A stretch of DNA of 64,000 nucleotides from Clostridia bacterium (GTDB lineage Bacteria > Bacillota > Clostridia > DUPQ01). Below are positions 3,492-27,763 of the stretch, piece after piece. The stretch is from the NCBI GenBank assembly GCA_030592085.1, contig JAUUZV010000001.1, positions 807-64,806 on the forward strand, read 5' to 3'. Made by a program: the position numbers and the translations under genes. Under the pieces are notes generated by a model. It was not told where the DNA came from. It searched no databases and saw only the letters and a program-made list of their open reading frames with translations. How positions within the stretch are numbered: position 1 is the first letter of the stretch; each line of letters begins with the position of its first letter.

Positions 3492-3495
3492 TTTT

Positions 3496-3681
3496 TCACC
3501 TTCTTACTATTATTTCATCAGCAAATACACCAACAATAAAAATTATTAACCCTACACCAAAAAAAGTATATACATTAGCAATTTTTAATTTGGTAATTAA
3601 ATCTAGATACTGATTTATGATTATTACTGTAATACCAATAAAAGCTAATATCTTACCTATATTAACCATAATACACTCCAT
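3496..3681 (-). CDS. small TM protein, hypothetical
   Basis: 61-aa ORF with two TM segments. Confidence 0.3.
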   Translation of the reverse strand: MECIMVNIGKILAFIGITVIIINQYLDLITKLKIANVYTFFGVGLIIFIVGVFADEIIVRR

Positions 3682-4033
3682 AAAAGATTAAAGCTGCGCC
3701 TAATATTAAACCGCAAACCATTATCCAAATTTTGTATTTTTTCCAAAATGCCATTTTTCACCTCAATCTATAAACTAAATACCAAATATAAATTAAAATT
3801 GTCATTAAAAACGCTACAATATAATATATATTAGTAAATAATTGTTGACTTAACTGTATTAAATTATTAAAAATTATTATTGATATAGCTAACACACTTA
3901 TTATAAAAACACTTAATTTTTTAGGTTGCATTATATTATACCAGATCCTTTTAATACTAATAATATAATTACTATAGTACCCACAATTAATACGATTTCA
4001 TCCCAATGTTTTTTAATAAATATCATTTTTACC

Positions 4034-8523: not shown

Positions 8524-8828
8524 GTTTCATATTTACCAACACAATCTTCAATTGGCCTTATACTAAGTCCACATGTTCCATTATGTGCTGGATTTGTTCG
8601 TATTAATTTTGTACATAAATAAGTTAAACAATTATCATCTTGTATTTCTTCACACATTCCATAAAAACTATCTTTTGGTGCTTCAACATGTTCTGTAAAA
8701 ATTTTAGCATTATTTTGTGTTGGGGTTTCTACTGGAAAAAATATTGATATACTAATGATAATAATGAACATAACAATAACTATAAGTATTACTTTTGTAA
8801 ATATATTTGGTTTTGTATTTTGTGACAT
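8511..8828 (-). CDS. signal-anchored Cys-containing small protein, hypothetical
   Basis: N-terminal TM followed by a Cys-rich ectodomain. Confidence 0.3.
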   Translation of the reverse strand: MSQNTKPNIFTKVILIVIVMFIIIISISIFFPVETPTQNNAKIFTEHVEAPKDSFYGMCEEIQDDNCLTYLCTKLIRTNPAHNGTCGLSIRPIEDCVGKYETCVR

Positions 8829-8846
8829 TTTTTATCTCATAATGTA

Positions 8847-8868
8847 AATTAAAAAATAAAAAAAATTG
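8847..8868 (-). terminator. oligo-T tract (TTTTTTTATTTTTTAATTT on the transcribed strand) just 3' of gene 8875..9936
   Basis: A-run on the plus strand, so a T-run on the minus strand, directly after the stop codon. The same element recurs after three other minus-strand genes. Confidence 0.4.
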
Positions 8869-8874
8869 TTAGAT

Positions 8875-9936
8875 TTAACTAACGGATAATACGAGCCTAG
8901 GTAGGTTTATAGTAGCTACAGCGACTTGCGTTGCTGCATCTGTCCAACATCCAACGTTTATTGTATCCTGTGCTTTTACAGAATTATATCTACCTTCTGC
9001 ACAAAATTCAATAATAGGGTCATCGCTTGGATTTACTCCAGCAGCCGATTCCATATAAAAGTCGACGTAAGATTCTCTATCCCCAATAGTTCCAATGTCA
9101 TAAGCATATTCATATCCTGAATATTTTCTTAAATCATCTGAAGCCATACTGGTTTTAACATCTACTAATTTTTGTCCACCATCTCTTGATACGATTGGTT
9201 CATCATATTCCGACCCATCAGCATCCACAAGCATAAATACCTTTAGACCATCTTCACCAAATTGTTTCTTGGTTTCGTTTGTTTTCATATAGATTCTTGT
9301 ATCTATATATCCATCAGTAGCTAAAGTTAGTGCTGAATTACCTGAAGCATCTGCAACTGTTAAACTAGATCCATTTGCATCTATGTAAGCAGTACTTCCA
9401 CCAATCTCAAAGAAAGTTGATCCACCGGAATACTTATCTTCTACCTTAAATTTAGGTGAGTCAATAGCTTTTCCCATAACATCTATCTTTGCGGTTGCTC
9501 CTACTGCACTAAACTCTACACTTTCAGCACTTGTATATGCGTCTACACTTGTTACTGTAATAACTTTCCAACCTGTACCACAAGTTACATCTGCATTACT
9601 TGAAAAATTTCCATTAGTATGTAATGTTCCTAATGTAGTTCGTCTTTCATTTGCATTTGTTGGTACTGCATATGCTGTTGGGTTTCCATATGTTATTGTT
9701 GACGCAAGTCCTTCTTGATATCGAACAACAATACCTGTTAATTCGCTATCTGGGCAACTTGCAACAACACCGCCAACTTGCGCACCAGGTGTTCCTGGTT
9801 GTGGGGCAGTACTAGCTGGAGCGCAAGCACCTAATATGACTGATAATGCTAAAAGCATACCAATCAACATGTTTCTTTTCTTCATTTTGGTTTCCACCTC
9901 ATTATATTTATCTATTAAACTACTATATGTAGTCAA
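8875..9936 (-). CDS. secreted paralog A with lipoprotein-like signal; abundant-structural-protein candidate
   Basis: An internal start MKKRNMLIGMLLALSVILGAC looks like a signal peptide with a lipobox-like Cys. It is about 65% identical to ORF 10916..12013 over its whole length (shared LVGKAIDSPKFKVEDKYSGGSTFF, QFGEDGLKV.MLVDADGSE.DEPIV.RDGGQKLVDV and VGCWTDAA). Confidence 0.55.
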   Translation of the reverse strand: MTTYSSLIDKYNEVETKMKKRNMLIGMLLALSVILGACAPASTAPQPGTPGAQVGGVVASCPDSELTGIVVRYQEGLASTITYGNPTAYAVPTNANERRTTLGTLHTNGNFSSNADVTCGTGWKVITVTSVDAYTSAESVEFSAVGATAKIDVMGKAIDSPKFKVEDKYSGGSTFFEIGGSTAYIDANGSSLTVADASGNSALTLATDGYIDTRIYMKTNETKKQFGEDGLKVFMLVDADGSEYDEPIVSRDGGQKLVDVKTSMASDDLRKYSGYEYAYDIGTIGDRESYVDFYMESAAGVNPSDDPIIEFCAEGRYNSVKAQDTINVGCWTDAATQVAVATINLPRLVLSVS

Positions 9937-13691: not shown

Positions 13692-16377
13692 AATATTTAA
13701 TGTAAACGATGTCGAAAAAACATTTCAATTAACCAACTATGATGAAATAGAAATACGTGTTATTGAACCTAAAAAAGGTTCAAAAAACATTAAAACATTT
13801 CATACTCACAACAAACAAGATTTTATTAATAAAGCTAAAGAATTCTCAGGACAATCAATAAATCAAATTTATCATAGTGTATTCTTTGGAGTTAACGAAA
13901 GAAAAAAAGGTTGTAGTAAAGAAAAAGATATTTTCAAAGTAAATATTCTTCCTATCGATTTAGATTACAAAAGAGAATCATATACTAGTACTACTGATGA
14001 ACAAGTAAAATATACTATTGAAATAGGTCACAAATTAAGACAGTGGTTTATTGATAATAACTTTGAAGCTCCTTCTATGTCAATGAGTGGAAATGGAGTT
14101 GGATTATACCTAAAAGTACCGGCTATTCCTTTCAAAAACAATGAAGCTATGCTTGATTTTAAAGCTAAGTGGACATTATTTACTAAAAAAATACGAAAAA
14201 TTATAACAAATATGACTGATAAAGTTGAAGTTGATTACATACAAGATCTAAGTAGAATATTTAAAATTGTAGGAACTATGTCTGTAAAAGGAAATAAACA
14301 CAGACTAACAAAATGGATTGAATATAATAATAAAGAAGATGAAAACTTAAAAGAATATATTATGCAAATGGACGCTGAAGAAGAAAAAACCAAACCAATT
14401 GAAGTTAAACCTTTAAGTAAAGATATGTTAAAAAAAATCATTGAAGATGCTAATATTCAAGAATTACTAAATATGAAAGGAGAACAGGGAAAAAGAAGTG
14501 AGTTAGAACAAAAATTATTTAATAAGTTAGTACTAAAAGGAATAACTGATTTTAAACAATTAGACGCTATTATGAGTACTTGTAAGATTGGTAAATGGCA
14601 AGAAGGAACCAAATCTTATAAAGAGCATACATATAAAAATTCTTTAGCGTTTGTTGCTAAACTTAAAAAAAATAAGCCAAAACAAACTGGAAGTTATATC
14701 AGTGTTGAATTAAGCGATAATAGATATTTAATTAATAATAAATCAGGAATTTTTATACAAAAAGAACAGTATGATAAAAATAAAAAAGAACCATTTTATA
14801 CAAAAGAAAGAACAATTCATACTTGGCATATAGAAAAAGTAATTGTTGAACTATCCGCATACATGGATGACTTCTATTTTAAAATATTTGTTACTGATAA
14901 CAAACACAAACGAGAATTAAAAGGAACTATTGATGAAGTAGCTGAACTATTTAAAAAAATTCCTGGTTGTTGTGAATCTAGAAGTGTAAAAGATTGTATG
15001 TCACATCTGGTTAGTTTTTTGCAAACAGAAGAACGAGTAGAAATTGAAAAAAATCCTTTAACAACTGCGTTTGGGTTTGCTTATGATAAAGAAAATAAAA
15101 AAATAATTATAAAAGATGTGCTTCAAAACACTAAAATGGTTGAAGAAGTCACAAAAGAACAACTAAAAAAAGGTTTAGACGCCCTGTTTACTATTATAGA
15201 TAGTTATAATAAATCAGAATCACATAGAAATGAGTTAATAAGAATCATGGCAACTGGTTTGATTTATCCGTTTGGTTATATAAGAAAACAAATGTTACAG
15301 TTAGCTCCATTTGTAATTGTAAATGGACCATCAGGAACTGGAAAGACTTTAAGTGGTGATGTTATTCTTTGTATGTGGGGTTGTTGGGGTAAAAGAGGTT
15401 TTGAACATTCTGGAAGTACTGTTAATGGAGCTTATCAATTAGCAAAAAAATGTAGTGAAAATACAATGTTCTTATTGATAAACGAAGCTGGACAGTTTTT
15501 AGCTAAATTCTCTGAAAATAACGAGATCACAGAATTGTTAAAAAATATGGTTGAATCTCCATTCCCAATACGAGATAAAAAAAGTGGAATGTTTATTTCT
15601 TTTAGGACTCCTTTCTTAACTGCCAACTATCCTTTTAAATTTAGTACTGATGCGTTAAGATTAAAGACTTTAGTGTTCTCTTTTGAGAACGATTTTACAC
15701 ATTCAGGTGATGAAAGAGCAGAAGTAATGCAATTATTAAGTTCATCTGAAAGAGATTTATCTTATATTGGTTCTTGGCTAACAAATAAAGTATCACAACA
15801 TGATAAAAAATATTTTGATATTATTACACAGAAAGATTATGCAAAAGCTTCTATGGATTTACTTAAAGAGTTGCTTGCTGATTCTGGAATGAATCATGAT
15901 TTACCAACACCTCCAGTAGTAGGGTCTTACATAAATAATGAAACTACATCATTTTGGGAAAATATGATTGATTATATGAGAATAGAAATAATAAAAAGAG
16001 CTAAACAAGTTGCAAGTATTGATGAATCAAAAGAAGGATTAAATGTAAGACAGTGTATAGATATAATTATAGATAAAAATAATTTACCTACTTGGTTAAT
16101 AACTATTCACAAAGATGTGGAATTAAAAGTACTTGTACCTGCTGAAATTCAACAATATGTGCAGACATTCTCTAAAGAAACCTTTGAAATGGGAGTTTAT
16201 GAGAAAGAAGTAAAAAATAGAGATGGTTATGATTATGTAAAAAGTAAAAATGTGCGTGTGCACGGTAAATCTACCAAAAAAAGTGGCATGTATGTGTTAA
16301 AGTCAAAATTTGTTGAGTTATTCGAAGAGCGTGCGCACCTTGAAAAACAAAAAACATTGTCTAATTCTGCACCATAA
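13639..16377 (+). CDS. primase-helicase: AEP-type primase domain fused to a D5-like SF3 helicase
   Basis: N-terminal region has ILPIDLDYK (DxD) and MSGNGVGLY (sGxGxH-like), which are AEP primase motifs. C-terminal region has the Walker A VNGPSGTGKT followed by LLINEAG (Walker B). The start may instead be the ATG at 13684 (MNEIFNV). Confidence 0.7.
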   Translation: MTLKMFCQKIRTIKKMNEIFNVNDVEKTFQLTNYDEIEIRVIEPKKGSKNIKTFHTHNKQDFINKAKEFSGQSINQIYHSVFFGVNERKKGCSKEKDIFKVNILPIDLDYKRESYTSTTDEQVKYTIEIGHKLRQWFIDNNFEAPSMSMSGNGVGLYLKVPAIPFKNNEAMLDFKAKWTLFTKKIRKIITNMTDKVEVDYIQDLSRIFKIVGTMSVKGNKHRLTKWIEYNNKEDENLKEYIMQMDAEEEKTKPIEVKPLSKDMLKKIIEDANIQELLNMKGEQGKRSELEQKLFNKLVLKGITDFKQLDAIMSTCKIGKWQEGTKSYKEHTYKNSLAFVAKLKKNKPKQTGSYISVELSDNRYLINNKSGIFIQKEQYDKNKKEPFYTKERTIHTWHIEKVIVELSAYMDDFYFKIFVTDNKHKRELKGTIDEVAELFKKIPGCCESRSVKDCMSHLVSFLQTEERVEIEKNPLTTAFGFAYDKENKKIIIKDVLQNTKMVEEVTKEQLKKGLDALFTIIDSYNKSESHRNELIRIMATGLIYPFGYIRKQMLQLAPFVIVNGPSGTGKTLSGDVILCMWGCWGKRGFEHSGSTVNGAYQLAKKCSENTMFLLINEAGQFLAKFSENNEITELLKNMVESPFPIRDKKSGMFISFRTPFLTANYPFKFSTDALRLKTLVFSFENDFTHSGDERAEVMQLLSSSERDLSYIGSWLTNKVSQHDKKYFDIITQKDYAKASMDLLKELLADSGMNHDLPTPPVVGSYINNETTSFWENMIDYMRIEIIKRAKQVASIDESKEGLNVRQCIDIIIDKNNLPTWLITIHKDVELKVLVPAEIQQYVQTFSKETFEMGVYEKEVKNRDGYDYVKSKNVRVHGKSTKKSGMYVLKSKFVELFEERAHLEKQKTLSNSAP

Positions 16378-16389
16378 AACTCTTTTAGG

Positions 16390-16550
16390 TAAGCACGTTA
16401 CGCCTAATATGCCCGCAAAAAAACCAACGTCCTTATATTATTTTACAAAGTTCTATTTTATCATGGGAGCACCCGGGAGCATCGTAACCATTATGCTCAA
16501 CGGGCTTAACGGGCTTACCCTGCTTACCGCGCTTACTACGCTTACTCCCC
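16390..16550. promoter_or_regulatory. GC-rich island with short direct repeats; candidate replication origin or iteron region
   Basis: GGGAGCA occurs twice, and five tandem 9-bp units ending in GCTTA(C) span 16501..16545. The island sits in AT-rich DNA directly 3' of the primase-helicase gene. Confidence 0.35.
16501..16545. repeat. 5 x 9-bp tandem repeat (acgggctta acgggctta ccctgctta ccgcgctta ctacgctta)
   Basis: Read directly from the sequence. Confidence 0.7.
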
Positions 16551-16727
16551 TTTATATATAAATATTTAATAATAATAATAAATATATATATAAGAACAGT
16601 TTCTTTATGATGTGATTGTTGGAGGAGCAACAAACATATAAATCAACGAATTATTATGGAATAAAGATGTACAAAAAATCATAATTTTTTTGTTAAAAAA
16701 ATAAAACCAAATGGAGGAAATTAAAAA

Positions 16728-17105
16728 ATGAAAAGAGTAGAATTACTAAAGATTGATGTAGATAAGTATGTAAACGATAAAGCCCAGATTGTTTCAGCTG
16801 AGGTAGTTAAGTTGAAATTTGGAACAGTAATAAAAGTTTTAACAAACCCGTTAGAACTTAAAGGAGATGATAAGCTCCCAGAAGGTCGTCATTTGACTGG
16901 AAGTATTTTATTAGGATTGGTAGATTCAGATGAAGGTTTGGCTATTGGAATAGATGGTAAATCTGAAAAATGGTTAATTGCTCATGGAGTAGATGTGACA
17001 AAAGATATTCCAGATGACTTAAAGATTGGAGATCAATGCAAAGCACTTCTTGGAAAAGATGTAGTTGTTCAAAAGAATACTGGCGGTTTCTTAGAAATTG
17101 CTTAA
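16728..17105 (+). CDS. hypothetical acidic protein
   Basis: 125-aa ORF with a strong SD, GGAGGAAATTAAAAA, before the ATG. Confidence 0.45.
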   Translation: MKRVELLKIDVDKYVNDKAQIVSAEVVKLKFGTVIKVLTNPLELKGDDKLPEGRHLTGSILLGLVDSDEGLAIGIDGKSEKWLIAHGVDVTKDIPDDLKIGDQCKALLGKDVVVQKNTGGFLEIA

Positions 17106-17125
17106 TTTTTTTTATTTTTTTTAAA

Positions 17126-17518
17126 ATGCGAAATGATGGTGTTAATTATGAAGAACATATTAACAAGTTTTTTAAAGGAACGAACGTGTCTAATATACAT
17201 AATTACTGTGATATAGAGACTAAAAGTTCGTTATATGAAGTAAAAGGATGTAAAATATACTTAGAAAACAAGACTGGGTCAATGAGTTTAGGAAGATACC
17301 AAATAAATTTTGATAATCACAAACAATTAAAACAAGAAGCTGATAAGTTAAATAAAAAAGCAAAATATGTTTTTTTGTTAAGAATTGACAGACAAAAAAT
17401 ATTTAAAACAATGTCGTGGTTGGTAGTAAATCATATATTATTATTAGAAGGTCGAGAATTTAAAAAAGAAGATAGTGAAACAAAAATGTATAATATAAGA
17501 TTAAGGAGCGTGTGGTAA
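17126..17518 (+). CDS. PD-(D/E)xK nuclease-like protein, possibly an Hjc/RecB-like resolvase
   Basis: YCDIETKSSLYEVKGCK fits a D...E.K nuclease core. The internal Met at 17126 was chosen because the track ORF start at 17036 overlaps the upstream gene. Confidence 0.3.
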   Translation: MRNDGVNYEEHINKFFKGTNVSNIHNYCDIETKSSLYEVKGCKIYLENKTGSMSLGRYQINFDNHKQLKQEADKLNKKAKYVFLLRIDRQKIFKTMSWLVVNHILLLEGREFKKEDSETKMYNIRLRSVW

Positions 17519-17519
17519 A

Positions 17520-17909
17520 ATGTTTAAATTAAAAAAAGAATTTAATATTAGTTGTAGTCATAGACTTTTTGATATGGATGCGTCAGATGAAACAAATAGT
17601 ATAATTTTTGGTAGATGTTGTAAAAATCATGGGCACAATTATAAAATAATTCTTTATCTTAAATCTGACTCATTAAAGCATGGTATGTTATTAAATTTTA
17701 ATGAAATAAAAGACATTTTCAACTTACATATAGATAATGTATATGATCATAAATTTTTGAATGATTGTCCTGGTTTTGAAAACGTTATACCAACTGCAGA
17801 AAATATGTGTAAAGTGTTTTTTAATAAGCTTAAAGTACATTTATCGACTTTATATGCTGTAGAAATATATGAAACAGAAGGTGCTTCTGCTATTTATGAG
17901 GATGATTAA
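17520..17909 (+). CDS. queD: 6-carboxy-5,6,7,8-tetrahydropterin synthase (QueD/PTPS family)
   Basis: CSHRLFDMD, CCKNHGHNYKI (CxxxHGH) and DHKFLND are QueD/PTPS signature motifs. SD AAGGAG upstream. Confidence 0.7.
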   Translation: MFKLKKEFNISCSHRLFDMDASDETNSIIFGRCCKNHGHNYKIILYLKSDSLKHGMLLNFNEIKDIFNLHIDNVYDHKFLNDCPGFENVIPTAENMCKVFFNKLKVHLSTLYAVEIYETEGASAIYEDD

Positions 17910-17910
17910 A

Positions 17911-18495
17911 ATGAAAGTGAATGAAATGTTTGAATCGTTGCAAGGCGAAGGTCGTTTTGTTGGATATCCTGTTATGTTTATTAGAATGTCAGGGTGTAAT
18001 AGGTCTTGCGTCTTTTGCGACACATCTTATCATAACGAAGGAGAAGAACTGTCAGTAGAACAAATGGTTAAAAAGATAGATAAAAGTAATATGAATATTA
18101 TTATTTTTACTGGAGGAGAACCTATGATGCAGTTCGATGATATTATAAAAGTTATTGAACAAACAAAAGATAAACAATATCATATTGAAACTAATGGTGA
18201 TTTATTAGTTCCTGAAAGTTATTTTGATTATGTATGTTTTTCACCTAAAAGTGAAGAAGGTTTAAATAAAGCATTAGGATATCCTGGTATATGTGATATA
18301 AAAGTAGTTACAGATTTAAATTTAAATAAAAATATGTTAGAGTCAGCGACGATGATAATGCCGTTAACAACTATATCAGATATTAAAAATTTAAAAATTA
18401 AACAACAAGTATGGAAGTATTGTGAGAAACATAACAAGCGATATGCACCTAGACTTCATGTGGATGTTTGGGGAATGTCTAAACGAGGAGTTTAA
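17911..18495 (+). CDS. queE: 7-carboxy-7-deazaguanine synthase (QueE, radical SAM)
   Basis: Start is the ATG after GAGGATGA. MFESLQGEGRFVGYPVMFIRMSGCNRSCVFCDT carries the radical-SAM CxxxCxxC cluster motif and a QueE-like N-terminus. Confidence 0.75.
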   Translation: MKVNEMFESLQGEGRFVGYPVMFIRMSGCNRSCVFCDTSYHNEGEELSVEQMVKKIDKSNMNIIIFTGGEPMMQFDDIIKVIEQTKDKQYHIETNGDLLVPESYFDYVCFSPKSEEGLNKALGYPGICDIKVVTDLNLNKNMLESATMIMPLTTISDIKNLKIKQQVWKYCEKHNKRYAPRLHVDVWGMSKRGV

Positions 18496-18885
18496 ATGAG
18501 AGATAATACAGATAATCTAAACAAAATGTATATTAGTTGGGAACAGTTTGGTATTGATATTGATAAATTAGCAAATCTTATTAGTTTAGAAGCTAGAGAG
18601 TTTGATAGCATTTATGGAATACCTCGTAATGGCACTATTATATCTAGTATTCTATCAAAAATGTTAAATTTGAAAATGGTTGATTATCCAGACTCCACTA
18701 GAACTCTTATAGTTGACGATATTTCGGATTCAGGAAAAACCTTAAAGGAATATAAGAACAAATTTAACGGTAATGTGATAGCTTGTATTTTTTATCGACA
18801 AAATACAGAAATAATGCCAGATATAGTTGTATATGATGCACAAAAAGATTGGATTGTATTTCCTTTTGAATTAAATGAAAAATAA
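18496..18885 (+). CDS. xanthine-guanine phosphoribosyltransferase-like type I PRTase
   Basis: TLIVDDISDSGKTL is a PRPP-binding motif. The N-terminal YISWEQF, the central GIPRNGTIISSIL and the C-terminal VVYDAQKDWIVFPF are collinear with E. coli Gpt. Confidence 0.65.
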   Translation: MRDNTDNLNKMYISWEQFGIDIDKLANLISLEAREFDSIYGIPRNGTIISSILSKMLNLKMVDYPDSTRTLIVDDISDSGKTLKEYKNKFNGNVIACIFYRQNTEIMPDIVVYDAQKDWIVFPFELNEK

Positions 18886-18899
18886 TTAATATAATAAAA

Positions 18900-19307
18900 A
18901 TGGCATCTGAAATGATCAATAACGAAGAATTAAACAATATGATACCTAAAGATCGTCACTCTGTTTTTAAAAAATTATCAGCAGAGGAAATAAGAAACTT
19001 ACATCCATCATATGTTAAAGTCATTGAAGAAAGTGGTATTACAGTTGAAGAGTATTTAGAACGAGTAAGAACAAAAAAATATCAAAAAAATAATAATCAA
19101 AAAATGAATGAACAACAAATGAATGATTTGGTAGATAAAGAAGTTGAGAAGGTAAAACAGCGGGATAAAACTGATGTTTTGAATAAGATTAAACACGCAA
19201 AACCACCTAAATCCGGCTCAAGGTTTGAAGATGTGTTAAAAGGTTATGAAGAAAAATATAAATATAAGTACAAGCGATTTGTCAAAGATTACAGGAATTC
19301 ATCTTAG
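18900..19307 (+). CDS. hypothetical Lys/Glu-rich protein
   Basis: 135-aa ORF of charged low complexity. Confidence 0.35.
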   Translation: MASEMINNEELNNMIPKDRHSVFKKLSAEEIRNLHPSYVKVIEESGITVEEYLERVRTKKYQKNNNQKMNEQQMNDLVDKEVEKVKQRDKTDVLNKIKHAKPPKSGSRFEDVLKGYEEKYKYKYKRFVKDYRNSS

Positions 19308-19382
19308 TTATGTTTCACGATTAAAGAAACAAGTTAAGGAATATTTAGAAGATCAAAATAAAAAACATTAAATGAGGTAAAA

Positions 19383-19877
19383 ATGATACAAAATCCAGAA
19401 ATGATTATAGAAAAAGATTTTGTTTCTCCAGTTACAGAGGAACAAATACAAATGAATGGAATTGATTTGAGAGTTGAAAGTGTACAGTCTATTGAAGGTG
19501 TTGTTTCTATATTTAAAGATAGTAAACAGTTGCCAAATTATATAAATATAAAGAGTGAAGTTAATTTAAATAAAGGAAAAATTTGGAAATTAGAACCTGG
19601 TAAAGCTTATCTTTTACAAATAGCAGAAACAATAAAAATACCAGAAGGAATGTGTGCTATGGTTTGGATGCGTTCAACCTTTAATAGAAGTGGAATTCCT
19701 ATCTTTGCCTGTGTTTTTGATTCAGGTTATGAAGGCAAACCAACATTCACAGCATATCCTACAATTCCTTTGTATTTAGAAAAAGGAACAAGGGTGGCTC
19801 AGATAGTTTATTTTAATGCTGATACTGCTAAAATGTATGTTGGTCAGTATCAAGGAGAAGGAATAAAAAAAGAATGA
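19383..19877 (+). CDS. dCTP deaminase/dUTPase-superfamily enzyme
   Basis: NGIDLRV, LEPGKAYLLQ and VFDSGYEGK are the beta-barrel dUTPase/Dcd motifs. SD GAGGT upstream. Confidence 0.6.
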   Translation: MIQNPEMIIEKDFVSPVTEEQIQMNGIDLRVESVQSIEGVVSIFKDSKQLPNYINIKSEVNLNKGKIWKLEPGKAYLLQIAETIKIPEGMCAMVWMRSTFNRSGIPIFACVFDSGYEGKPTFTAYPTIPLYLEKGTRVAQIVYFNADTAKMYVGQYQGEGIKKE

Positions 19878-19892
19878 ATGAGGTAATATAAA

Positions 19893-20123
19893 ATGAAAAA
19901 AATGAATACTTTAAGTAGGGCAACAATTTATGTGCATCGAAATCATGAAATGAGAGAAAAAGGAAGACTCAAATTTTTTAAACATGAAAGAATTAGGATT
20001 GAAATTAAATTAAAAAATAAAGAAAAAGCTGATTTCATTTATGCTGATGAGCTACAGAAATATCTAGCCGAAAATTTTGAATATGGAACAAAGTTAGAAA
20101 AGGAGGAGAAAAAAGATGAATAA
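19893..20123 (+). CDS. hypothetical small basic protein
   Basis: 76-aa ORF with an SD upstream. Confidence 0.3.
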   Translation: MKKMNTLSRATIYVHRNHEMREKGRLKFFKHERIRIEIKLKNKEKADFIYADELQKYLAENFEYGTKLEKEEKKDE

Positions 20124-20946
20124 AGAATTACCAAAATATAGAAATAAAGAAGATACAACAGGTTTAGCAATACAAAAAGTTGGTATACGAGGAGTAAGAG
20201 CACCGTTTACTTTAAAAACAAAAAATGGTGGAGATCAAGAAACTATAGGAACTTGGAGTATATATACAGATTTATCAGCACAATTTAAAGGTGTTAGTAT
20301 GAGTCTTATGGAAAGAATACTACATCAAACTTTACAAAATGAAATAAGTGTTGATATATTAAAAGATATAACAACTCAAATTTATGAAAAGTCTGAACAC
20401 AAATCCAAAGATGTATATGTGAAAGTTAAATTTCCATACTCAATTAAAGTTAAAGCACCAGCATCTGGTTTTGAAGCTGTAAAGGTTTATGATTGTATGT
20501 TGGAAGTTAGAAATATTGATGGAAAGATTAAAAAATATTTAACTGTAAAAGTTCAATATATAGCAACTTGTCCATGTGCGGCTGAATTAGCTGATGAATT
20601 AATGAAGACTGAAAATAAACAAAGTATGGCACATCAACAAAGAGGTTTTGCTGAAATTACTATAGAATTTGGAAATGAAATTGTATGGATAGAAGATGTG
20701 ATTAACATTGCAGAAAATGAATTAAAAGCTACACCATATCCAGTTATTAGAAGGCCAGATGAACAAAATATTTGTTATACAGCACGTCAAAACTGTGCTT
20801 TTGTAGAAGAAGCTGTAAGAAATATTTGTCTTGGTCTTATTAAAGAATCTAGAATTTTAGATTATGTTGTAGTATGTAATCATGAGGAAAGTATTCATTC
20901 TCACTCAGCCGTTGCTGTAATGAATGATGGAAAGGAGTTAAAATGA
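20116..20946 (+). CDS. folE2: GTP cyclohydrolase FolE2/MptA family (GCYH-IB)
   Basis: N-terminal VGIRGVRAPF, GVSMSLMERI (compare GxHMSRF) and the conserved CPC motif (ATCPCAAEL). SD GGAGGAG upstream. Confidence 0.65.
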   Translation: MNKELPKYRNKEDTTGLAIQKVGIRGVRAPFTLKTKNGGDQETIGTWSIYTDLSAQFKGVSMSLMERILHQTLQNEISVDILKDITTQIYEKSEHKSKDVYVKVKFPYSIKVKAPASGFEAVKVYDCMLEVRNIDGKIKKYLTVKVQYIATCPCAAELADELMKTENKQSMAHQQRGFAEITIEFGNEIVWIEDVINIAENELKATPYPVIRRPDEQNICYTARQNCAFVEEAVRNICLGLIKESRILDYVVVCNHEESIHSHSAVAVMNDGKELK

Positions 20947-21293
20947 GCAAAATAACTAAATCAATAATTGTAAAAACAGTTTTTAATGGAGAACATATGT
21001 ATGAAGATGCACCAGAAGAAATTAAATTTCTGAGGGAACTTCACCCGCATATTTTTTTTGTATCGGCAAATATAGAGGTAACTAATAGCACTCGTGAATT
21101 AGAATTTTTCATGGTAAAAAGAGTTATAGACGACTATTGTAAAGAGTTTTTAACAGGTAATAGTGGTCGCTCTTGCGAAACTATGGCAGAATCTATTATT
21201 AATCTTTTACATAAAAAATATGGAAAAAGAAATTGTACTGTAACTGTATACGAAGATAACCAGAATGCTGGGAGGGTAAAATATGAAATTTGA
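20943..21293 (+). CDS. hypothetical protein
   Basis: 116-aa ORF, translationally coupled to its neighbours (ATGA overlap). Confidence 0.35.
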   Translation: MSKITKSIIVKTVFNGEHMYEDAPEEIKFLRELHPHIFFVSANIEVTNSTRELEFFMVKRVIDDYCKEFLTGNSGRSCETMAESIINLLHKKYGKRNCTVTVYEDNQNAGRVKYEI

Positions 21294-21516
21294 AATAACT
21301 TTAGATGTGAAAGATGAAGCTATACAAAAACATTTTAAAGATTTTTGTCAAAGTTTAGCTGATAGATTTGCTGCAGGGGAAAAAGAATACGGTGTAAGTA
21401 GTTACATGGATATGGATTTAGAAGAAGAATTAAAACAGGAATTACTCGATATTCCAAATTATTTGTTGTTAAGGTTTATTCAAATGCAAAAAAGAAAGGA
21501 GGCGGCAAAAAAATGA
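21283..21516 (+). CDS. hypothetical small acidic protein
   Basis: 77-aa ORF with SD GGGAGGG. Confidence 0.3.
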   Translation: MKFEITLDVKDEAIQKHFKDFCQSLADRFAAGEKEYGVSSYMDMDLEEELKQELLDIPNYLLLRFIQMQKRKEAAKK

Positions 21517-22262
21517 AATTAGCTTTTATTAGTACTATAAAGAACCCACAACTAAGTTTAGAAGGAGATTTGTTATTCACTTTAGCACAACATGCTTTTA
21601 AGGTAGATGATTATATTGAATTTTATAAAAAACAAAAAAAATACAAGATTGTTGATTGTGGCGCCGCGGAACATGAAACTGTAAAACCAGAAATATTGTT
21701 AGATGTAGCTCGTGAATTGGATGCTAATGAAATCATTGTTCCAGATAAATTATGTGTTGGTTGGCGCTCAACTTTAATGGCTAAAAATTTTTTTGAAACA
21801 CTTAGTCATGATGAAGCAAAAAAATATACTTTTCAATTAGTTGGTCAAGGAAAAACACCAGAACAATATATGACAAATGTAAATAATGTACTTAATCATG
21901 ATTTATGTCCACCAAATGTTATTTTAGGCATAAGTAAATTTTCTTCAGTTATGTCTTTTGGTAACAGAGTAAGATGTGTAAAACATCTTATTGATAATGG
22001 TATCAAAAATGAAATGCATTTGCTTGGTACTACAGATGATTTAGCTGAGATTGTGAAGTTGAAAGACATTGCTCAAATTAGAAGTAATGATAGTTGTATT
22101 GCTATTTTAGCAGCAACTGAAGGATTAAAATTTACAAAAGATAATTTGTCTACGCTTAAACGTCCTGTAACTACAAATAAATATTTTGATATTCAGATGA
22201 GTGAAGAACAAATATTATTGGCTAAAGAAAATATGAAAGTACTAAAAAATACACAGGCTTAA
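21513..22262 (+). CDS. hypothetical protein at the end of the deazaguanine module; candidate transglycosylase (DpdA/TGT-like?), unproven
   Basis: 249-aa ORF with SD AAGGAGG. Its position after FolE2/QueD/QueE is suggestive, but no diagnostic motif was recognised by eye. Confidence 0.3.
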   Translation: MKLAFISTIKNPQLSLEGDLLFTLAQHAFKVDDYIEFYKKQKKYKIVDCGAAEHETVKPEILLDVARELDANEIIVPDKLCVGWRSTLMAKNFFETLSHDEAKKYTFQLVGQGKTPEQYMTNVNNVLNHDLCPPNVILGISKFSSVMSFGNRVRCVKHLIDNGIKNEMHLLGTTDDLAEIVKLKDIAQIRSNDSCIAILAATEGLKFTKDNLSTLKRPVTTNKYFDIQMSEEQILLAKENMKVLKNTQA

Positions 22263-22508
22263 ATGTGTATTTTATAGGCCAATAGTATTTAAATATTTAC
22301 ATTTTTATATACTATAATAATGTATAAAATACAAATTCTTAATAAATTTACCGGTTGGGATAGTTTTAAACATAAAAAAACTAAAAAAACTCAATATTTT
22401 TTAACTAAATCTAATGCTATGAGAATTATTACTGTTTTTTTAGGAAATATAAAAAATATTAGAATAGTAAATACAGAAGATAAAAAAATTGTTTTCGAGA
22501 GGTGAAAA

Positions 22509-22760
22509 ATGACTAAAACAACATATAATATATATCATGAAAAAGGAAAGGTAGATGAGTTTATAGCTTATTCTTCACAAGATGCTGCATATAAACACGT
22601 TAGAAAAGTAGATGCAAAAATAGGTCATAAATTTATTGTAGGTTCTAATTTAGCACCACCGTTTTTTTCTTATGTAGTAAAAACAGTAGAAGGAAGACGA
22701 AAGGCTGTTAAAGTTGATAAAATTAAGACTGATATTACTCGTGGATTTTTAATGAAGTGA
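22509..22760 (+). CDS. hypothetical small protein
   Basis: 83-aa ORF with SD GAGGTG. Confidence 0.3.
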   Translation: MTKTTYNIYHEKGKVDEFIAYSSQDAAYKHVRKVDAKIGHKFIVGSNLAPPFFSYVVKTVEGRRKAVKVDKIKTDITRGFLMK

Positions 22761-22787
22761 CGATTATTTAAAAAACAATATGAATGA

Positions 22788-23906
22788 ATGACTATGAAAG
22801 CCGTATTATATATGAGATTGTTTGAAGATTCTGGAATAACTAAATTACAAATATTTAAAAATAAAAAAGAACATCTTGTTGAGTTACCATTTAAACCTTA
22901 TTTTTTTGACTCAGCCAAAATAGATGGGTTAGTTGGAGAAGAAGTTATTTTAAAACCAGTTGATACATTACAACCTACTAAACTTTTTAAATATGAAGTT
23001 GATTCTGTAAAAGATATACCTAAATTAAGAACTAAAACGAGTATAGCTGCAGATGTAAATTATTTATTACGATTATGTATAGATCAACCTAGCTTTTTGA
23101 ACCAGTATTTTCAAACAGATGAATTAACATTTTTATATCTTGATATTGAAACTGATAGTATTGGAATTTTCCCTAAGCCTGAATTGAACCCAATTATTAG
23201 TATAGGATATGCTATTAATGATGGTCCAGTAAAAGTAATTAAAATTGATAAATTAGAAGATGGTGATATAAAACTTTTATTAGAGTTTAATGAAGTTATG
23301 GAAAAGTACAATCCTGATGTCATAGTTGGATATAATATTTTAATGTTCGATTTACCATATATTTTGAAAAGAATGAAAAAGAATGGAATAAGTACAGATT
23401 GTTGGACAAGAGGTAAAACATCTGCATTTTTCACAACTAGTTCTGGTAATGAAGTTTATAATATTCAAGGAAGGTTTGTATTTGATGTGATTAAAGAAGT
23501 GTTTCAAGATCAAACAATTCATGGCATTTCGAAAGGATTAAAACCAGTTTCAAAATATTTTAAAGTTGATGAAAAAATAAGACAAATACCAGGATATGAA
23601 GATTATCAAATTATAACTGAAGATGTTCATATCACGAGGCCATTAATCGGAACAGATAAATTGGCAAAATATAATGAGAGTGATGTTCTTATCACACGTG
23701 AATTATGTAAAATGTACATTGCTAATGTGATAGCGTTTGCAGAAATGTTACATGCTCCATTAAATATGATGGCTAAACGAACTACAAGTATGATAGGTTC
23801 TATTTTTTATGCAACCGAACTTAAAAAGAAAGGTATTATTGAATGTACTATGCCTAATTATAAAAGACACCCAGATGTATTTGGAACTTTAAAGGAGGGT
23901 TATTAA
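22788..23906 (+). CDS. polB: family B DNA polymerase, N-terminal half (3'-5' exonuclease domain)
   Basis: Exo I is YLDIETD, Exo II is YNILMFDLPY, Exo III is YNESD. The gene ends in TAA, which overlaps the ATG of the next gene. Confidence 0.75.
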   Translation: MTMKAVLYMRLFEDSGITKLQIFKNKKEHLVELPFKPYFFDSAKIDGLVGEEVILKPVDTLQPTKLFKYEVDSVKDIPKLRTKTSIAADVNYLLRLCIDQPSFLNQYFQTDELTFLYLDIETDSIGIFPKPELNPIISIGYAINDGPVKVIKIDKLEDGDIKLLLEFNEVMEKYNPDVIVGYNILMFDLPYILKRMKKNGISTDCWTRGKTSAFFTTSSGNEVYNIQGRFVFDVIKEVFQDQTIHGISKGLKPVSKYFKVDEKIRQIPGYEDYQIITEDVHITRPLIGTDKLAKYNESDVLITRELCKMYIANVIAFAEMLHAPLNMMAKRTTSMIGSIFYATELKKKGIIECTMPNYKRHPDVFGTLKEGY

Positions 23907-25105
23907 TGCCTTTTTTTAGAGAGTCTCGATTTAATGATGAGAAAGGAATACAAGGAGCTATTGTAGAGATTTATAAAACTGGTTTAATACGAAAAATAAA
24001 AAAGGTTGATTTTTCTGCTTTTTATCCTAGCATTGTTATGAGTTTTAATTTATCACCAGAAACAACAAAGATAAAGGAATATTTACCTTATACTAATAAA
24101 TATGATTTTGATATACAAAAGGATAGAACATTGTTATATATTCCAGATAATAGAATTAATAAAACAGTTGTCATTGAAATAAATAACACTATTCAAGGAT
24201 TTCTTCCAGCAAAACTTATTGAATTTAAAGAAAAAAGAGATAAGATTAAATTAAGATTAAGAGAAAAAAATTTAACACCAGGTGAACAAGTTTATCTTAA
24301 TAGTTTATCATGGACTTATAAAATTTTATCAAATTCTGTTGGTTATGGAATTAATAAAAATGCATGGTTTAAATATGGAGATTTATCAATATCAATAGCA
24401 ATTACTGGATTGGCTAGATATTTTATTCAGTTTGTAATGGACTTAAATCTTGATAAGAATATTGAAGTAGATACTGATGGTATATATGTAGATGGTGATA
24501 TAAATATTGATGATGTTAATTATAAAATAAAGGAACATACATTAGATAAATTTAATATTCCATTTGTTAAAAATTATTTATTTTTAGAGTTAGATGAATA
24601 CGATGCTGGATTTTTTTATAAAACTAAGAATTATCTTTTATTTAATAATGGTAAAGTTATAAAACATGGTGTTACATTTTTATCAAGTAGTAAAACAATA
24701 CTTTTTAAGAAAGCTTTAGATAAAATAGCTGAATATATATTTAATAATAAGTCAGTTATTGAAGCTGTTAATATACTTATAAATGAAGAAAGTACACTTA
24801 AAGATTTTACTATGAAAACTAATATAAATCAACCTATTTCTGAATATAAAAATGATGGATGTTTGCAAAAACAATTAGCTAAACAAGTTAAAGAACATTT
24901 AAAACAAGATTTACAAGTTTCTGATACAATCGATTATATTAAGACCAAAGATGGCTATAAAATATTAACGATAGCAAAGTTACACGAAGTTGATAAAAGA
25001 TATTATTATGATCAATTACAAACGTTAATTAATATTTTTACTGATGAAAAAATTAGTATTGAGAACGGTGGAGCTGTAATACAAAAAAAACTTGAAGGGT
25101 ATTAG
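23906..25105 (+). CDS. polB: family B DNA polymerase, C-terminal half (polymerase domain)
   Basis: Motif A is DFSAFYPSI, motif B is KILSNSVGYG, motif C is VDTDGIYV. It is in a different frame from the upstream half and overlaps it by 1 nt. Confidence 0.75.
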   Translation: MPFFRESRFNDEKGIQGAIVEIYKTGLIRKIKKVDFSAFYPSIVMSFNLSPETTKIKEYLPYTNKYDFDIQKDRTLLYIPDNRINKTVVIEINNTIQGFLPAKLIEFKEKRDKIKLRLREKNLTPGEQVYLNSLSWTYKILSNSVGYGINKNAWFKYGDLSISIAITGLARYFIQFVMDLNLDKNIEVDTDGIYVDGDINIDDVNYKIKEHTLDKFNIPFVKNYLFLELDEYDAGFFYKTKNYLLFNNGKVIKHGVTFLSSSKTILFKKALDKIAEYIFNNKSVIEAVNILINEESTLKDFTMKTNINQPISEYKNDGCLQKQLAKQVKEHLKQDLQVSDTIDYIKTKDGYKILTIAKLHEVDKRYYYDQLQTLINIFTDEKISIENGGAVIQKKLEGY

Positions 25106-25192
25106 TTTTTAATGTACTATTATAGGGGTAAAGCATGGTAGCATTTATATATAAGTACTTATTATTACACCTTATAACAAGTTAAAACGCTT

Positions 25193-25381
25193 GTGGAGGC
25201 AAATAATATGAAAACTAAAATATATAATGTACCAGAACCAACAAGAGTAGAACAAATTGCTTTTATGAAAGCTAATTACCCAAAAGTTGATAACAGTGCT
25301 ATTATAAAACAACTTGGAATAAATAAAAGTTATTTTTACAGACTTGTAGGAAAAGTTACTACCGCTGTTCATGCAGCTTAA
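25193..25381 (+). CDS. small HTH-like protein
   Basis: 62 aa. IIKQLGINKSYFYRLV resembles a helix-turn-helix. Confidence 0.3.
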   Translation: MEANNMKTKIYNVPEPTRVEQIAFMKANYPKVDNSAIIKQLGINKSYFYRLVGKVTTAVHAA

Positions 25382-25401
25382 TTTTATTCAAATGTGATGG
25401 A

Positions 25402-25857
25402 GTGAAAAAAATGACTGAAGAAATTTTAATTTCGGAAGATGGGGAAACTCAAGTACTTTTATCAGATATACATAAATTTACTGTTTTTCACAAAACTTAT
25501 GAGAATGGATTAAAATTAAAAGCATATGTCAATCCTGATTTATGTACTGTTATTGATGATATGGGTGAAGTAATTAAAAAAGGCAAGTATGAACATTTTC
25601 AAGTATATGAACATGATAAATTTTGTGCAGGAAGTAGACCAGGAAGTAGAGAAAGAATATCAAGAGAAATATCAAATGGTTTTATAGTGTTAGGCAAATA
25701 TAATAAGTGTAGAACGAAGCTTATGAATAAAGTTAAAAAAGAAGCAAAAACAAAACAAAATAATAGTGTAGTAATGACAGGAATGAGTAGTGGTTATGCA
25801 GTACATAATAGTTATTTAGAATTAAAAATGAATGGTGATAATGATGTCAAAATATAA
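25402..25857 (+). CDS. hypothetical protein
   Basis: 151-aa ORF. Confidence 0.35.
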   Translation: MKKMTEEILISEDGETQVLLSDIHKFTVFHKTYENGLKLKAYVNPDLCTVIDDMGEVIKKGKYEHFQVYEHDKFCAGSRPGSRERISREISNGFIVLGKYNKCRTKLMNKVKKEAKTKQNNSVVMTGMSSGYAVHNSYLELKMNGDNDVKI

Positions 25858-26095
25858 CACCAATAAAAAATATAGAGAATGTGTAAAAAGATGTGTTAAA
25901 AAATATAGAGCTACTGAGAAAGGTATTATAACAACTCAACGAGCATTAAAAAAATTAAAAGATGTATATCCAGATTACATGAAAGATTATATGAAAAAAC
26001 GAAGATCTGAAGCAAAAATACAAGGTATTTGTTGTAGATGTTTAAAAAGAAAAGCAATTAAAGGCATGGTATTATGTCGAATATGTAGAATATGA
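25832..26095 (+). CDS. basic protein with C-terminal Cys cluster (zinc-binding?)
   Basis: Ends in CCRCLKRKAIKGMVLCRICRI. Confidence 0.3.
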   Translation: MVIMMSKYNTNKKYRECVKRCVKKYRATEKGIITTQRALKKLKDVYPDYMKDYMKKRRSEAKIQGICCRCLKRKAIKGMVLCRICRI

Positions 26096-27133: not shown

Positions 27134-27763
27134 ATGAATGAAATGGAAACAAAAAAAATAGCAATAGTTGGTGCTGGTGGCATTAATAGTTGGGCTATAA
27201 AATGGTTACATCAGTTAATTGAAGATTTTGATAGAAAATTAATTTATGTAAAGATCTTCGATAATGATGAAGTAGAAGAAAAGAATTTACTACGTAATAA
27301 TCAAAATTTTCAAATAGATGATTTACTATCACAAAAGGCGGAAGTTCTTTCTGAAAGATATAACTTTGATTGTGAAAACATTTTTATTACTGAGGATAAT
27401 ATTCAAAAATTAGCTAGTTTTGATGATATAATTTTAGGAGTAGATAATCATAAAACTAGGAAATTAATTTATGATTTTGCATTAAAGAATAATAAATATG
27501 TTCTTGATATGAGAGCTCAAGGCACTATCATGGGTTTTACAATTATAGATGGTAGTAAAGACATGGATTATTATAATAAAAAAATGTTTAATAATTTAGA
27601 AGTTATGGAAAGAAAAGGTAGTTGTCAGTTAAAGAGTGATGTTGAAAATGATCATATAGAAAATGCTAATCGAGTAATAGCAATGTTAGGTATTTATTCA
27701 GTTTATTTGAAAAGATTAAGAAAAGAAAAAGTATCTACGGACGAATGGAAATTTGTATATTAA
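27134..27763 (+). CDS. ThiF/MoeB/E1-like adenylyltransferase (adenylation domain only)
   Basis: IVGAGGINSW is the Gly-rich loop. FDNDEVEEKNLLRNNQ matches DxDxVExSNLNRQ. LGVDNHKTRKLI matches the DN..R motif. There is no C-terminal CxxC region. Confidence 0.6.
   Translation: MNEMETKKIAIVGAGGINSWAIKWLHQLIEDFDRKLIYVKIFDNDEVEEKNLLRNNQNFQIDDLLSQKAEVLSERYNFDCENIFITEDNIQKLASFDDIILGVDNHKTRKLIYDFALKNNKYVLDMRAQGTIMGFTIIDGSKDMDYYNKKMFNNLEVMERKGSCQLKSDVENDHIENANRVIAMLGIYSVYLKRLRKEKVSTDEWKFVY

Follow-up and report, generated by a model that had tools for sequence, protein, structure and literature searches.

In the published view, every 7-deazaguanine modification of viral DNA is installed after replication by DpdA (PMC10516641). 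The characterized members of the DpdA1 class give partial, motif-specific modification and hence act post-replicatively (PMC10484667, PMC6884629), and the phages of the CP220, phiST and immuto groups, which encode DpdA3, are 100% substituted, with dADG in the case of CP220 (PMC10516641). DpdL, a paralogue of QueD with the signature LxxxHRHxF instead of CxxxHGH, is the proposed decarboxylase of 7-carboxy-7-deazaguanine (CDG) (Cui et al. 2023, PMC10516641). On this view DpdA3 alone accounts for complete substitution, but no reconstitution of DpdA3 and DpdL has yet been achieved. No phosphoribosyltransferase (PRT) is mentioned in PMC10516641 or PMC6884629, and in the literature searched we found no earlier description of a link between a PRT, MazG or dGTP and viral deazaguanine DNA.

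We analyzed a 64,000-nucleotide virus-like sequence of about 27% G+C (contig JAUUZV010000001.1, positions 807 to 64,806; hereafter, the window), which by sequence comparison carries a phiST-type module of the DpdA3/DpdL class for 7-deazaguanine DNA, without QueC. Two genes within this module, one for a Gpt-like PRT and one for a protein of the dUTPase/Dcd superfamily, are the subject of this report. From the observed gene identities, conserved residues, fusion and adjacency counts and class-specific distribution, we tentatively favor the explanation that the PRT is a pared-down guanine-salvage Gpt and that the Dcd-like protein is a non-deaminating (deoxy)nucleoside triphosphate ((d)NTP) pyrophosphatase, both being conserved accessories of the module. 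The two genes are as follows.

18496-18885, + strand: Gpt-class purine phosphoribosyltransferase, a 'mini-Gpt' without flexible loop II, 129 aa
19383-19877, + strand: dUTPase/Dcd-fold NTP pyrophosphatase (predicted) without the deaminase Glu, 164 aa

A Gpt-class phosphoribosyltransferase without loop II

The open reading frame (ORF) of the PRT begins with an ATG directly on the base after the QueE stop codon. An initial annotation of the window had placed a Gpt-like PRT here, with a VDDISDSGKT motif collinear with that of Escherichia coli Gpt, and both statements were borne out. The protein matches Pfam Pribosyltran (PF00156; 1.6e-9, 37.7 bits, above the cut-off of 26.3) and PHROG 8995, 'phosphoribosyl transferase' (1.4e-18); its match to the NCBIfam xanthine PRT model NF006613 (4.2e-15) is, at 55.7 bits, far under the cut-off of 138. 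The closest solved structure is the purine PRT of Pyrococcus horikoshii (1vdm; 2.3e-9). An AlphaFold model of the window PRT (predicted local distance difference test [pLDDT] score 89, predicted template modeling [pTM] score 0.83) retrieved with Foldseek a list of structures of which the top 46 were all xanthine-guanine, hypoxanthine-guanine-xanthine or purine PRTs, the Gpt-class 6-oxopurine PRTs having template modeling (TM) scores of 0.77-0.80.

We compared active sites in an alignment of E. coli Gpt with 89 viral sequences (the window PRT and 88 viral homologues). The motif V-D74-D75-I-S-D78-S-G-K-T82 is collinear with Gpt D88, D89, D92 and T96. D74, D75, D78 and G46 (window numbering) are invariant in 89/89, and R44, G80, T82, W119 (87/89), P123 and E125 are nearly so; position 101 is Lys or Arg in 77/89 (Arg in the window, Lys in most). 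The Gpt counterparts of the conserved residues are R37, G39, D88, D89, D92, K115, W134 and D140, and the C terminus of the window protein, P123-F-E125, fits the Gpt-type P-W-[DE]. The window PRT and most viral copies have no flexible loop II, a deletion of about 21 residues that correspond to Gpt 61-81; the loop is retained in the PRTs of phiST, P0006, P0007 and L124. L124 is a 43-kb relative, present in 36 samples, in which a single ORF (9065-9832) joins the full-length PRT to a winged-helix DNA-binding domain at the C terminus, an architecture that recalls PRT-fold transcription regulators.

Loop II is important to catalysis in enzymes of the hypoxanthine-guanine phosphoribosyltransferase type, and its absence from most viral copies would suit a PRT that is no longer an enzyme but a sensor of phosphoribosyl pyrophosphate (PRPP) or purines, or a partner subunit of FolE, tuning flux or transcription in the manner of PurR, PyrR or GfcR. 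The winged-helix fusion of L124, a weak NCBIfam match to the regulator GfcR, and fusions to FolE (see below), which suggest complex formation, point the same way. The catalytic and PRPP/Mg-binding residues are nevertheless invariant over some 90 very divergent sequences, which would be unusual for a pure sensor, and most copies have no DNA-binding domain; we regard a non-catalytic role as very unlikely.

The phosphoribosyltransferase tracks FolE

By tblastn against phage genomes, the PRT was found in Flavobacterium immuto, Campylobacter CP220/CP21-type, Cellulophaga phiST-group and Brevundimonas phages and, as the N-terminal part of the FolE gene, in Pseudomonas, Xanthomonas and Vibrio siphoviruses. 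The CP220, phiST and immuto groups all encode both DpdA3 and the PRT. The initial annotation had started from the premise that known viral deazaguanine systems need no PRT; this premise fails, because CP220, phiST and immuto 2-6A encode this same PRT. The Arg-rich 124-aa product annotated as gp38 in Pseudomonas phage PaMx25 (NC_041953.1) was rejected, being probably a translation of the wrong frame; the PRT match lies in another frame and is continuous with FolE, and the true gene is a PRT::FolE fusion of 297 aa (L007:6899-7792) that takes in the annotated folE. In related Pseudomonas, Xanthomonas and Vibrio phages the whole PRT::FolE gene is annotated 'GTP cyclohydrolase'.

The 89 viral sources of the PRT include the best 80 of at least 260 IMG/VR loci, which were chosen by similarity to the window PRT, share ancestry, and were annotated with hidden Markov models (HMMs) built in this analysis (the PRT model used for the fusion counts was built on domain-trimmed sequences). 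QueD was detected in 69 of these sources, QueE in 73, FolE or FolE2 in 80 and QueC in 55. Relative to FolE/FolE2, the PRT is fused in 13 sources, lies within 150 nt in 50, within 1.5 kb in 12 (including the window, at 1231 nt) and within 3 kb in five, and nine have no FolE in the examined stretch. It is thus fused to or adjoins FolE in 63/80 loci with FolE. When sequences were clustered at 50% identity, fusion or adjacency held in 22/29 clusters (binomial p = 2e-7 against 0.29, the chance expectation for adjacency in a seven-gene cluster).

The association does not depend on the class of transglycosylase (DpdA classes were likewise assigned with HMMs built here). The PRT is equally common in DpdA1-type clusters, its active-site columns are the same in the DpdA1 and DpdA3 classes, and 10/13 PRT-FolE fusions come from DpdA1-type clusters, which carry no pyrophosphatase. 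Conversely, the PRT is missing from the DpdA3 clusters of MA9V-3, Ahp1, RHph_I1_18 and L129, all of which still have a pyrophosphatase. In four further loci (L063, L066, L048 and L080) a PRT is present and no DpdA is visible in the examined stretch, the contigs extending further.

Among cellular relatives, 24/26 are stand-alone housekeeping PRTs outside Que clusters, and the other two lie in Que clusters of a Pacearchaeota and a WWE3 metagenome-assembled genome (MAG). The cellular sequences nearest to the window PRT, with 38-45% identity, come from low-GC DPANN MAG contigs (L098, L099 and L101), which suggests, from sequence similarity, a host of the window virus among the DPANN archaea. These are Nanoarchaeota, Pacearchaeota and Woesearchaeota contigs that may themselves be viral or proviral; the gene order in L099 is QueD-PRT-QueE.

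A Dcd-fold protein that lacks the deaminase glutamate

The second gene begins after an interval of 497 nt, in agreement with the initial annotation, which had a dUTPase/Dcd-superfamily gene following about 500 bp after the PRT. The protein matches Pfam DCD (PF22769; 1.2e-22) and dUTPase (PF00692; 5.5e-7); among NCBIfam models it scores 104.9 bits (3e-30) with archaeal-type dUTPase PRK02253, below the cut-off of 130, and 68.3 bits with dCTP deaminase TIGR02274, below the cut-off of 92.8. At the column of the catalytic Glu of dCTP deaminases (E. coli E138, in D-P-G-x(6)-L-E) the window protein has Thr (...TFTAY...), and the motifs R-S-T, F-D-S-G-Y, R-V-A-Q and Y-x-G-Q-Y-Q-G are kept. Because Thr replaces Glu while these phosphate- and sugar-binding motifs persist, we take the protein to be of the pyrophosphatase type, and the reading of this ORF as a dCTP deaminase, which the initial annotation had allowed, is rejected. 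The residue alone is not decisive, in that the SIRV1 dUTPase has that Glu yet does not deaminate. In an approximate neighbor-joining tree (identities of 24-33%, no support values), the window protein groups with copies from deazaguanine/DpdA3 clusters, apart from the SIRV1 and STSV1 dUTPases and from true Dcd enzymes. Bacteroides phage SJC03 encodes two dUTPase-fold paralogues (L091 1320-1820 and 5926-6423), one canonical and Dut-like; the second is of the deazaguanine-cluster type, yet it has no Que genes within 6 kb.

One slot, three unrelated hydrolase folds

A window-type Dcd-like gene directly follows the PRT in eight IMG/VR loci. Without a PRT, it occurs in the DpdL/DpdA3 clusters of the isolates Chryseobacterium MA9V-3, Aeromonas Ahp1 and Rhizobium RHph_I1_18, and further DpdL/DpdA3 clusters with this gene are L078, L124, L129 and L133. 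The commonest family among the clustered unassigned ORFs is MazG/PRA-PH-like (PF01503/PF03819; 37 loci) and takes in the 'hydrolase' of immuto and phiST CGPG_00068; single-sequence searches of the PDB with these MazG-like proteins gave nothing useful. The distribution of the NTP pyrophosphatases and phosphohydrolases over the DpdA classes was as follows.

DpdA3 (40 loci): MazG-like 25, Dcd-like 11, HD 2, any 38
Other long DpdA-like (7 loci): MazG-like 0, Dcd-like 2, HD 4, any 6
DpdA1 (14 loci): MazG-like 0, Dcd-like 0, HD 0, any 0

Of the DpdA3 loci, 38/40 carry such an enzyme, as against 0/14 of the DpdA1 loci (Fisher p = 4e-11); no locus has two of the types, and the pattern holds in 13/14 DpdA3 lineages defined at 50% identity. 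Related DpdA3s swap between MazG-like and Dcd-like partners, and the nearest cluster gene to the pyrophosphatase is the PRT in 27 loci, FolE in 10 and DpdA in eight. The Dcd-like gene of the window fills a conserved slot that other DpdA3-class viruses give to a MazG/PRA-PH-like or HD enzyme.

Kinase-like genes often stand beside this slot. In CP220 (L130 5862-8355), DpdA3 (gp056) lies between gp055, an HD plus AAA_33 kinase-like protein, and gp057, an AAA_28 kinase whose family also includes the 'thymidylate kinase' encoded next to DpdN in the immuto group. Kinase genes flank DpdA3 in the immuto group as well. Ahp1 has a T4-type deoxynucleoside monophosphate (dNMP) kinase (PF21448) between DpdA3 and the Dcd-like gene, Youna2 has a P-loop protein just before DpdA3, and the order in Brevundimonas phage MaInes is RNR-RNR-dNMP kinase-FolE-PRT (RNR, ribonucleotide reductase). 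Directly after FolE-PRT, MaInes carries a 155-aa ORF, MAINES_00770 (L134 14410-14877), with the motif FVFGSNLRGIHGKGAA and no Pfam match, at the place that the pyrophosphatase has in other clusters.

These distributions bear on whether the two genes simply encode an unspecialized PRT of purine salvage and an ordinary dUTPase within a replication and nucleotide-metabolism block, with no tie to deazaguanine. Among characterized proteins, their closest relatives are indeed Gpt enzymes with housekeeping roles and dUTPases of archaea or viruses, some Dcd-like homologues lie beside a polymerase and RNR without Que genes, and the cellular PRT relatives stand alone. There is, however, no general block for them to belong to: QueC, MazG, HD, kinase, RNR and thymidylate synthase (ThyA) genes were not detected anywhere in the window, which apart from the two genes has no recognizable gene of nucleotide metabolism. 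Fusion or adjacency of PRT and FolE recurs in 22/29 lineages, three non-homologous NTPase types that are never paired fill one slot in a class-specific manner, and the approximate tree, low in identity and without support values as it is, places the window Dcd-like protein with the deazaguanine-cluster copies. We judge a housekeeping origin of this kind quite unlikely.

Composition of the module

The other genes of the module, and those adjoining it, are the following.

17520-17909, + strand: QueD (6-carboxytetrahydropterin synthase); Pfam PTPS 1e-30, NCBIfam QueD 5.5e-21
17869-18495, + strand: QueE (radical-SAM 7-carboxy-7-deazaguanine synthase); Radical_SAM 6.8e-13, NCBIfam QueE models 4e-23 to 2e-15, every score below the model's own cut-off
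18900-19307, + strand: 135-aa Lys/Glu-rich ORF with no convincing family match
20116-20946, + strand: FolE2 (GTP cyclohydrolase IB); Pfam GCHY-1 1.3e-66, NCBIfam FolE2 5.4e-68 (229 bits, above the cut-off of 215)
20943-21293, + strand: DpdL-type QueD paralogue (proposed CDG decarboxylase), 116 aa, weakly PTPS-like
21283-21516, + strand: 77-aa ORF with no match in Pfam, NCBIfam or PHROG
21513-22262, + strand: DpdA3-family guanine transglycosylase homologue, 249 aa
22788-25105, + strand: family B DNA polymerase (PolB) in two abutting ORFs; Pfam DNA_pol_B_exo1 2.6e-19, DNA_pol_B 3.7e-16

The QueE HMM built in this analysis picks up the window QueE along with 73 viral loci. In the protein encoded at 20943-21293, the motif L30-R-E-L-H-P-H-I-F38 fits the DpdL signature, with Pro replacing Arg; the DpdL HMM built here groups it with phiST CGPG_00067 (1e-27), and it matches PHROG 17812 (5.8e-11). 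The 249-aa protein is 24% identical over 98% coverage to the DpdA3 prototype, phiST CGPG_00065 (tblastn, 2e-6 database-wide), and 25% identical to the DpdA of immuto. The DpdA3 HMM built from this family has 37+ members, and hhalign pairs it with DpdA1-type proteins (95.2% probability, E 2.8e-8) at both catalytic-Asp motifs, D48 (DNS/DSG) and D193 (S-x-D-[ST]-S). Its matches in the PDB are weak ones, to the DNA-guanine transglycosylase 7ui4 and to tRNA-guanine transglycosylase (TGT); a low-confidence AlphaFold model (pLDDT 60, from 3 sequences) has a TGT, 6rkq, at Foldseek rank 7 (TM 0.40). The DpdL motif, the DpdA3 match and the absence of QueC together identify the module as one of the phiST, or 'dDG', type, transglycosylase included. 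The initial annotation had set the post-replicative DpdA route apart from the window; the window itself encodes DpdA3.

The order of these genes is kept in relatives. It is QueE-PRT-x-x-Dcd...FolE2-DpdL-x-DpdA3-split PolB in L133 and identical in L124; in L129 the Dcd-like gene is kept and the PRT is missing. Since these relatives and many unrelated viral contigs preserve the arrangement, the placement of the two genes is not due to chance, and the earlier proposal that both belong functionally to the deazaguanine module is upheld by the conserved order and by their recurrence in viral loci. Megablast of window positions 16000-26000 against phage genomes gave no match. The ORF at 18900-19307 has no NCBIfam or PHROG match and a sub-threshold Pfam match (DUF3829, 6.2e-4, 19.9 bits against a cut-off of 26.8), and a homologue was found in 0 of 4,517 ORFs from related loci. 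In the split PolB, the exonuclease ORF (22788-23906) meets the polymerase ORF (23906-25105) at position 23906; PolB is split alike in L133, with a 47-aa ORF between the halves. L133 also has LAGLIDADG homing-endonuclease sequences inside or beside module genes (3363-4001 and 8777-9742), its DpdL-matching ORF being 321 aa long with a LAGLIDADG match, and a helicase at L003 9924-12290 contains an intein.

Elsewhere in the window, GC skew is strand-linked and tracks the coding strand sharply, with reversals around 12-13 kb and 44 kb, the places at which the genes change orientation. The most AT-rich part (12-13.6 kb, 23% G+C) resembles a divergent control region. A ThiF-family (E1-like adenylyltransferase) ORF lies at 27134-27763 in the replication-side gene block, and no tRNA genes were found in the 64 kb.

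A proposed guanine cycle around the module

The substrates, the direction of flux and the tie to complete substitution that we infer for the favored explanation are these. FolE2, QueD and QueE would lead to CDG, DpdL would act as the proposed decarboxylase, and DpdA3 would carry out the base exchange. Exchange of the TGT type is known to free one guanine per site, and each exchange by a TGT/DpdA-type enzyme in the module would likewise expel one guanine. The PRT, with PRPP, would convert this and other scavenged guanine to GMP, which host kinases would return to GTP, the substrate of FolE, closing the cycle; the PRT would thereby also clear a poorly soluble base that competes with the deazaguanine base. 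The most likely task of the Dcd-like protein would be to cleave a canonical triphosphate down to its monophosphate, with dGTP as the substrate if guanine is excluded before replication and dUTP if the role of the protein is housekeeping.

Several observations favor guanine as the substrate of the PRT. The gene goes with FolE, which consumes GTP at the entry to the pathway, and not with the last biosynthetic step or DpdA. PRT-FolE fusions occur in DpdA1-type clusters, where a deaza-nucleotide would be purposeless. The active site is alike in DpdA1 and DpdA3 clusters, including the invariant Asp that serves purine N7, and several DpdA3 clusters dispense with the PRT altogether. Finally, complete substitution would release a large flux of guanine, poorly soluble and competing for re-insertion. 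The same observations (the FolE tie, the retained guanine and PRPP residues, the lack of a difference between classes, and the absence of the PRT from some pyrophosphatase-bearing DpdA3 clusters) speak against the action on CDG or preQ0 that the initial annotation had proposed; its interpretation as a whole is partly supported.

Other points weigh against our explanation. The loss of loop II could mean that the PRT has weak or altered activity, and the window protein has N45 at a position that is Gly in 87/89 homologues (Gpt Gly38). A PRT-FolE fusion does not join consecutive steps, because GMP is two kinase steps away from the substrate of FolE. The IMG/VR loci are not independent samples, because they were selected by their likeness to the window PRT. 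The nearest characterized relatives of the Dcd-like protein are plain dUTPases, and members of its family also occur in ordinary replication contexts (L127/L128); on these grounds the slot may simply hold a dUTPase, which is the sober alternative. TubE, moreover, is proof of CDG specificity in a PRT of the purine type (PMC6112128), and the window has the genes to make CDG and lacks QueC, as in the TubE-type pathway.

The TubE precedent makes a further route conceivable, along the lines of TubE and ToyH. The PRT would join the deazaguanine base (here CDG) to PRPP and DpdL would decarboxylate the nucleotide; host kinases and ribonucleotide reductase would then yield 7-deaza-dGTP for PolB, and the Dcd-like protein would destroy dGTP. 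TubE is a proven CDG-specific PRT in a QueC-less pathway with a decarboxylase and a nucleotide hydrolase (PMC6112128); in the window, QueC is missing and DpdL is encoded. PRT and pyrophosphatase genes are usually neighbors, each of the three phage groups with a measured substitution of 100% carries the PRT, and an ADG nucleoside has been reported from CP220-infected cells (PMC10516641). We nonetheless hold this route to be unlikely. It renders the universally conserved DpdA3 redundant, and it leaves unexplained a pyrophosphatase kept without a PRT in the DpdA3 clusters of MA9V-3, Ahp1, RHph_I1_18 and L129. A PRT is equally present, FolE-fused, in DpdA1-type clusters with their partial, motif-specific modification, where a deaza-nucleotide is useless, and Asp78 (Gpt D92), which serves the N7 that 7-deazapurines lack, is invariant in 89/89. 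The classified kinases flanking DpdA3 are also of the deoxy-NMP type (DNMK), which implies a deoxy-monophosphate intermediate and not a ribonucleotide in need of a reductase.

Implications for the timing of substitution

Three unrelated NTP-hydrolase folds share one slot, often with adjacent kinases, and this is confined to the class associated with 100% substitution, which supports some form of nucleotide-pool logic. The initial annotation had suggested such logic by analogy to PurZ and DatZ; the analogy is a live possibility given the 38/40 against 0/14 distribution and the flanking kinases, and the role that it assigned to the PRT did not stand. DpdA3-class viruses (the window, CP220, phiST and immuto) may replace guanine fully before replication, although we think this somewhat unlikely. 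In such a scheme, dGTP would first be cut to dGMP by the pyrophosphatase (Dcd-like, MazG-like or HD). DpdA3, a compact protein of 249-265 aa, would then exchange the guanine of this mononucleotide, instead of guanine in DNA, for deazaguanine. Phosphorylation by a dNMP kinase (of the virus, or in the present case host Gmk) and by NDP kinase would supply the polymerase with modified dGTP, and the guanine set free would be returned by the Gpt-like PRT to GTP, for use by FolE. Among pre-replicative schemes it would be most economical to have DpdA3, and not the PRT, as the maker of the modified nucleotide, because the pyrophosphatase yields a dNMP, the classified kinases are of the dNMP type, and DpdA3 is universal and the PRT is not.

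The nucleotide-pool pattern is not easily squared with the view in print that modification of this kind is always post-replicative. About 100 viral gene sets with both gene types as regular parts hint at complete guanine replacement via the nucleotide pool, which, if true, would explain the failure of DpdA3 and DpdL alone in E. coli. The comparative pattern itself is not mentioned in the literature searched; it consists of a FolE-tied Gpt-like PRT, a DpdA3-only NTP pyrophosphatase of three interchangeable folds, and frequent kinase genes (dNMP-kinase or P-loop kinase-like). The PRT, the pyrophosphatase and the kinases are concrete candidates for the 'other unknown enzymes' of reconstitution, and the choice between pre- and post-replicative installation becomes directly testable in three cultivable phages. 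Guanine recycling, if true, would add a new case in which a virus closes a metabolic circuit around the chemistry by which it modifies its DNA.

Comparison with known systems

With Gpt (E. coli 1A95-1A98; 1vdm), the window PRT shares the fold (TM 0.77-0.80), the PPi-loop Arg, the D-D-x-x-D-[ST]-G-x-T motif, a Lys or Arg at Gpt K115, the stacking Trp134 and the P-W-[DE] C terminus. It differs in length (129 aa against 152-153), in having lost residues 61-81 and in N45 for Gly38, and whereas Gpt stands alone, the viral PRT sits in the deazaguanine pathway or is elsewhere fused to it. The Dcd-like protein resembles the Dcd-fold dUTPases (SIRV1, PRK02253) in fold, in length, in the motifs R-S-[ST], [FY]-D-x-G-[FY] and C-terminal Y-x-G-x-[YW]-Q-G, and in being without deaminase function; it differs from them in its Dut-like R-V-A-Q and in a shorter hairpin after D-x-G-[FY].

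By description, the TubE/ToyH systems also encode a purine-type PRT together with GTP cyclohydrolase I, QueD-like and QueE-like genes, and the tubercidin pathway too is without QueC and with a decarboxylase and a nucleotide hydrolase (PMC6112128). TubE, in contrast, has 194 aa and belongs to actinomycete metabolite clusters without a transglycosylase, whereas the window has DpdA3 and its PRT tracks FolE.

To our knowledge, all well-understood complete substitutions use a gene content of hydrolase plus kinase type, as in T4 and the Z-genome phages with DatZ/MazZ. T4 has gp56 dCTPase, gp42, and the dNMP kinase gp1. The Z-genome PurZ/DatZ/MazZ systems (PMC8342488) resemble the present one in placing a dNTP pyrophosphatase or phosphohydrolase beside modification enzymes and a polymerase. 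Shared with both the Z-genome and T4 systems are the adjacent kinase genes of several DpdA3 phages and the association with complete substitution. Here, by contrast, the maker of the modified dNMP is represented by candidates only, namely DpdA3 (published as a DNA transglycosylase) or the PRT, and a kinase gene was not found in the window.

The closest overall counterpart of the module is that of phiST (dDG, complete substitution; PMC10516641). Both have FolE, QueD, QueE, DpdL and DpdA3, no QueC, and a polymerase nearby; phiST likewise has an NTP pyrophosphatase between FolE and the DpdL region, and a PRT homologue in its genome. The two differ in that the window has FolE2 rather than FolE, a Dcd-fold rather than a MazG-like pyrophosphatase, and a split PolB as its polymerase; and the PRT, which in phiST lies about 17 kb away, is in the window a part of the module and abuts QueE.

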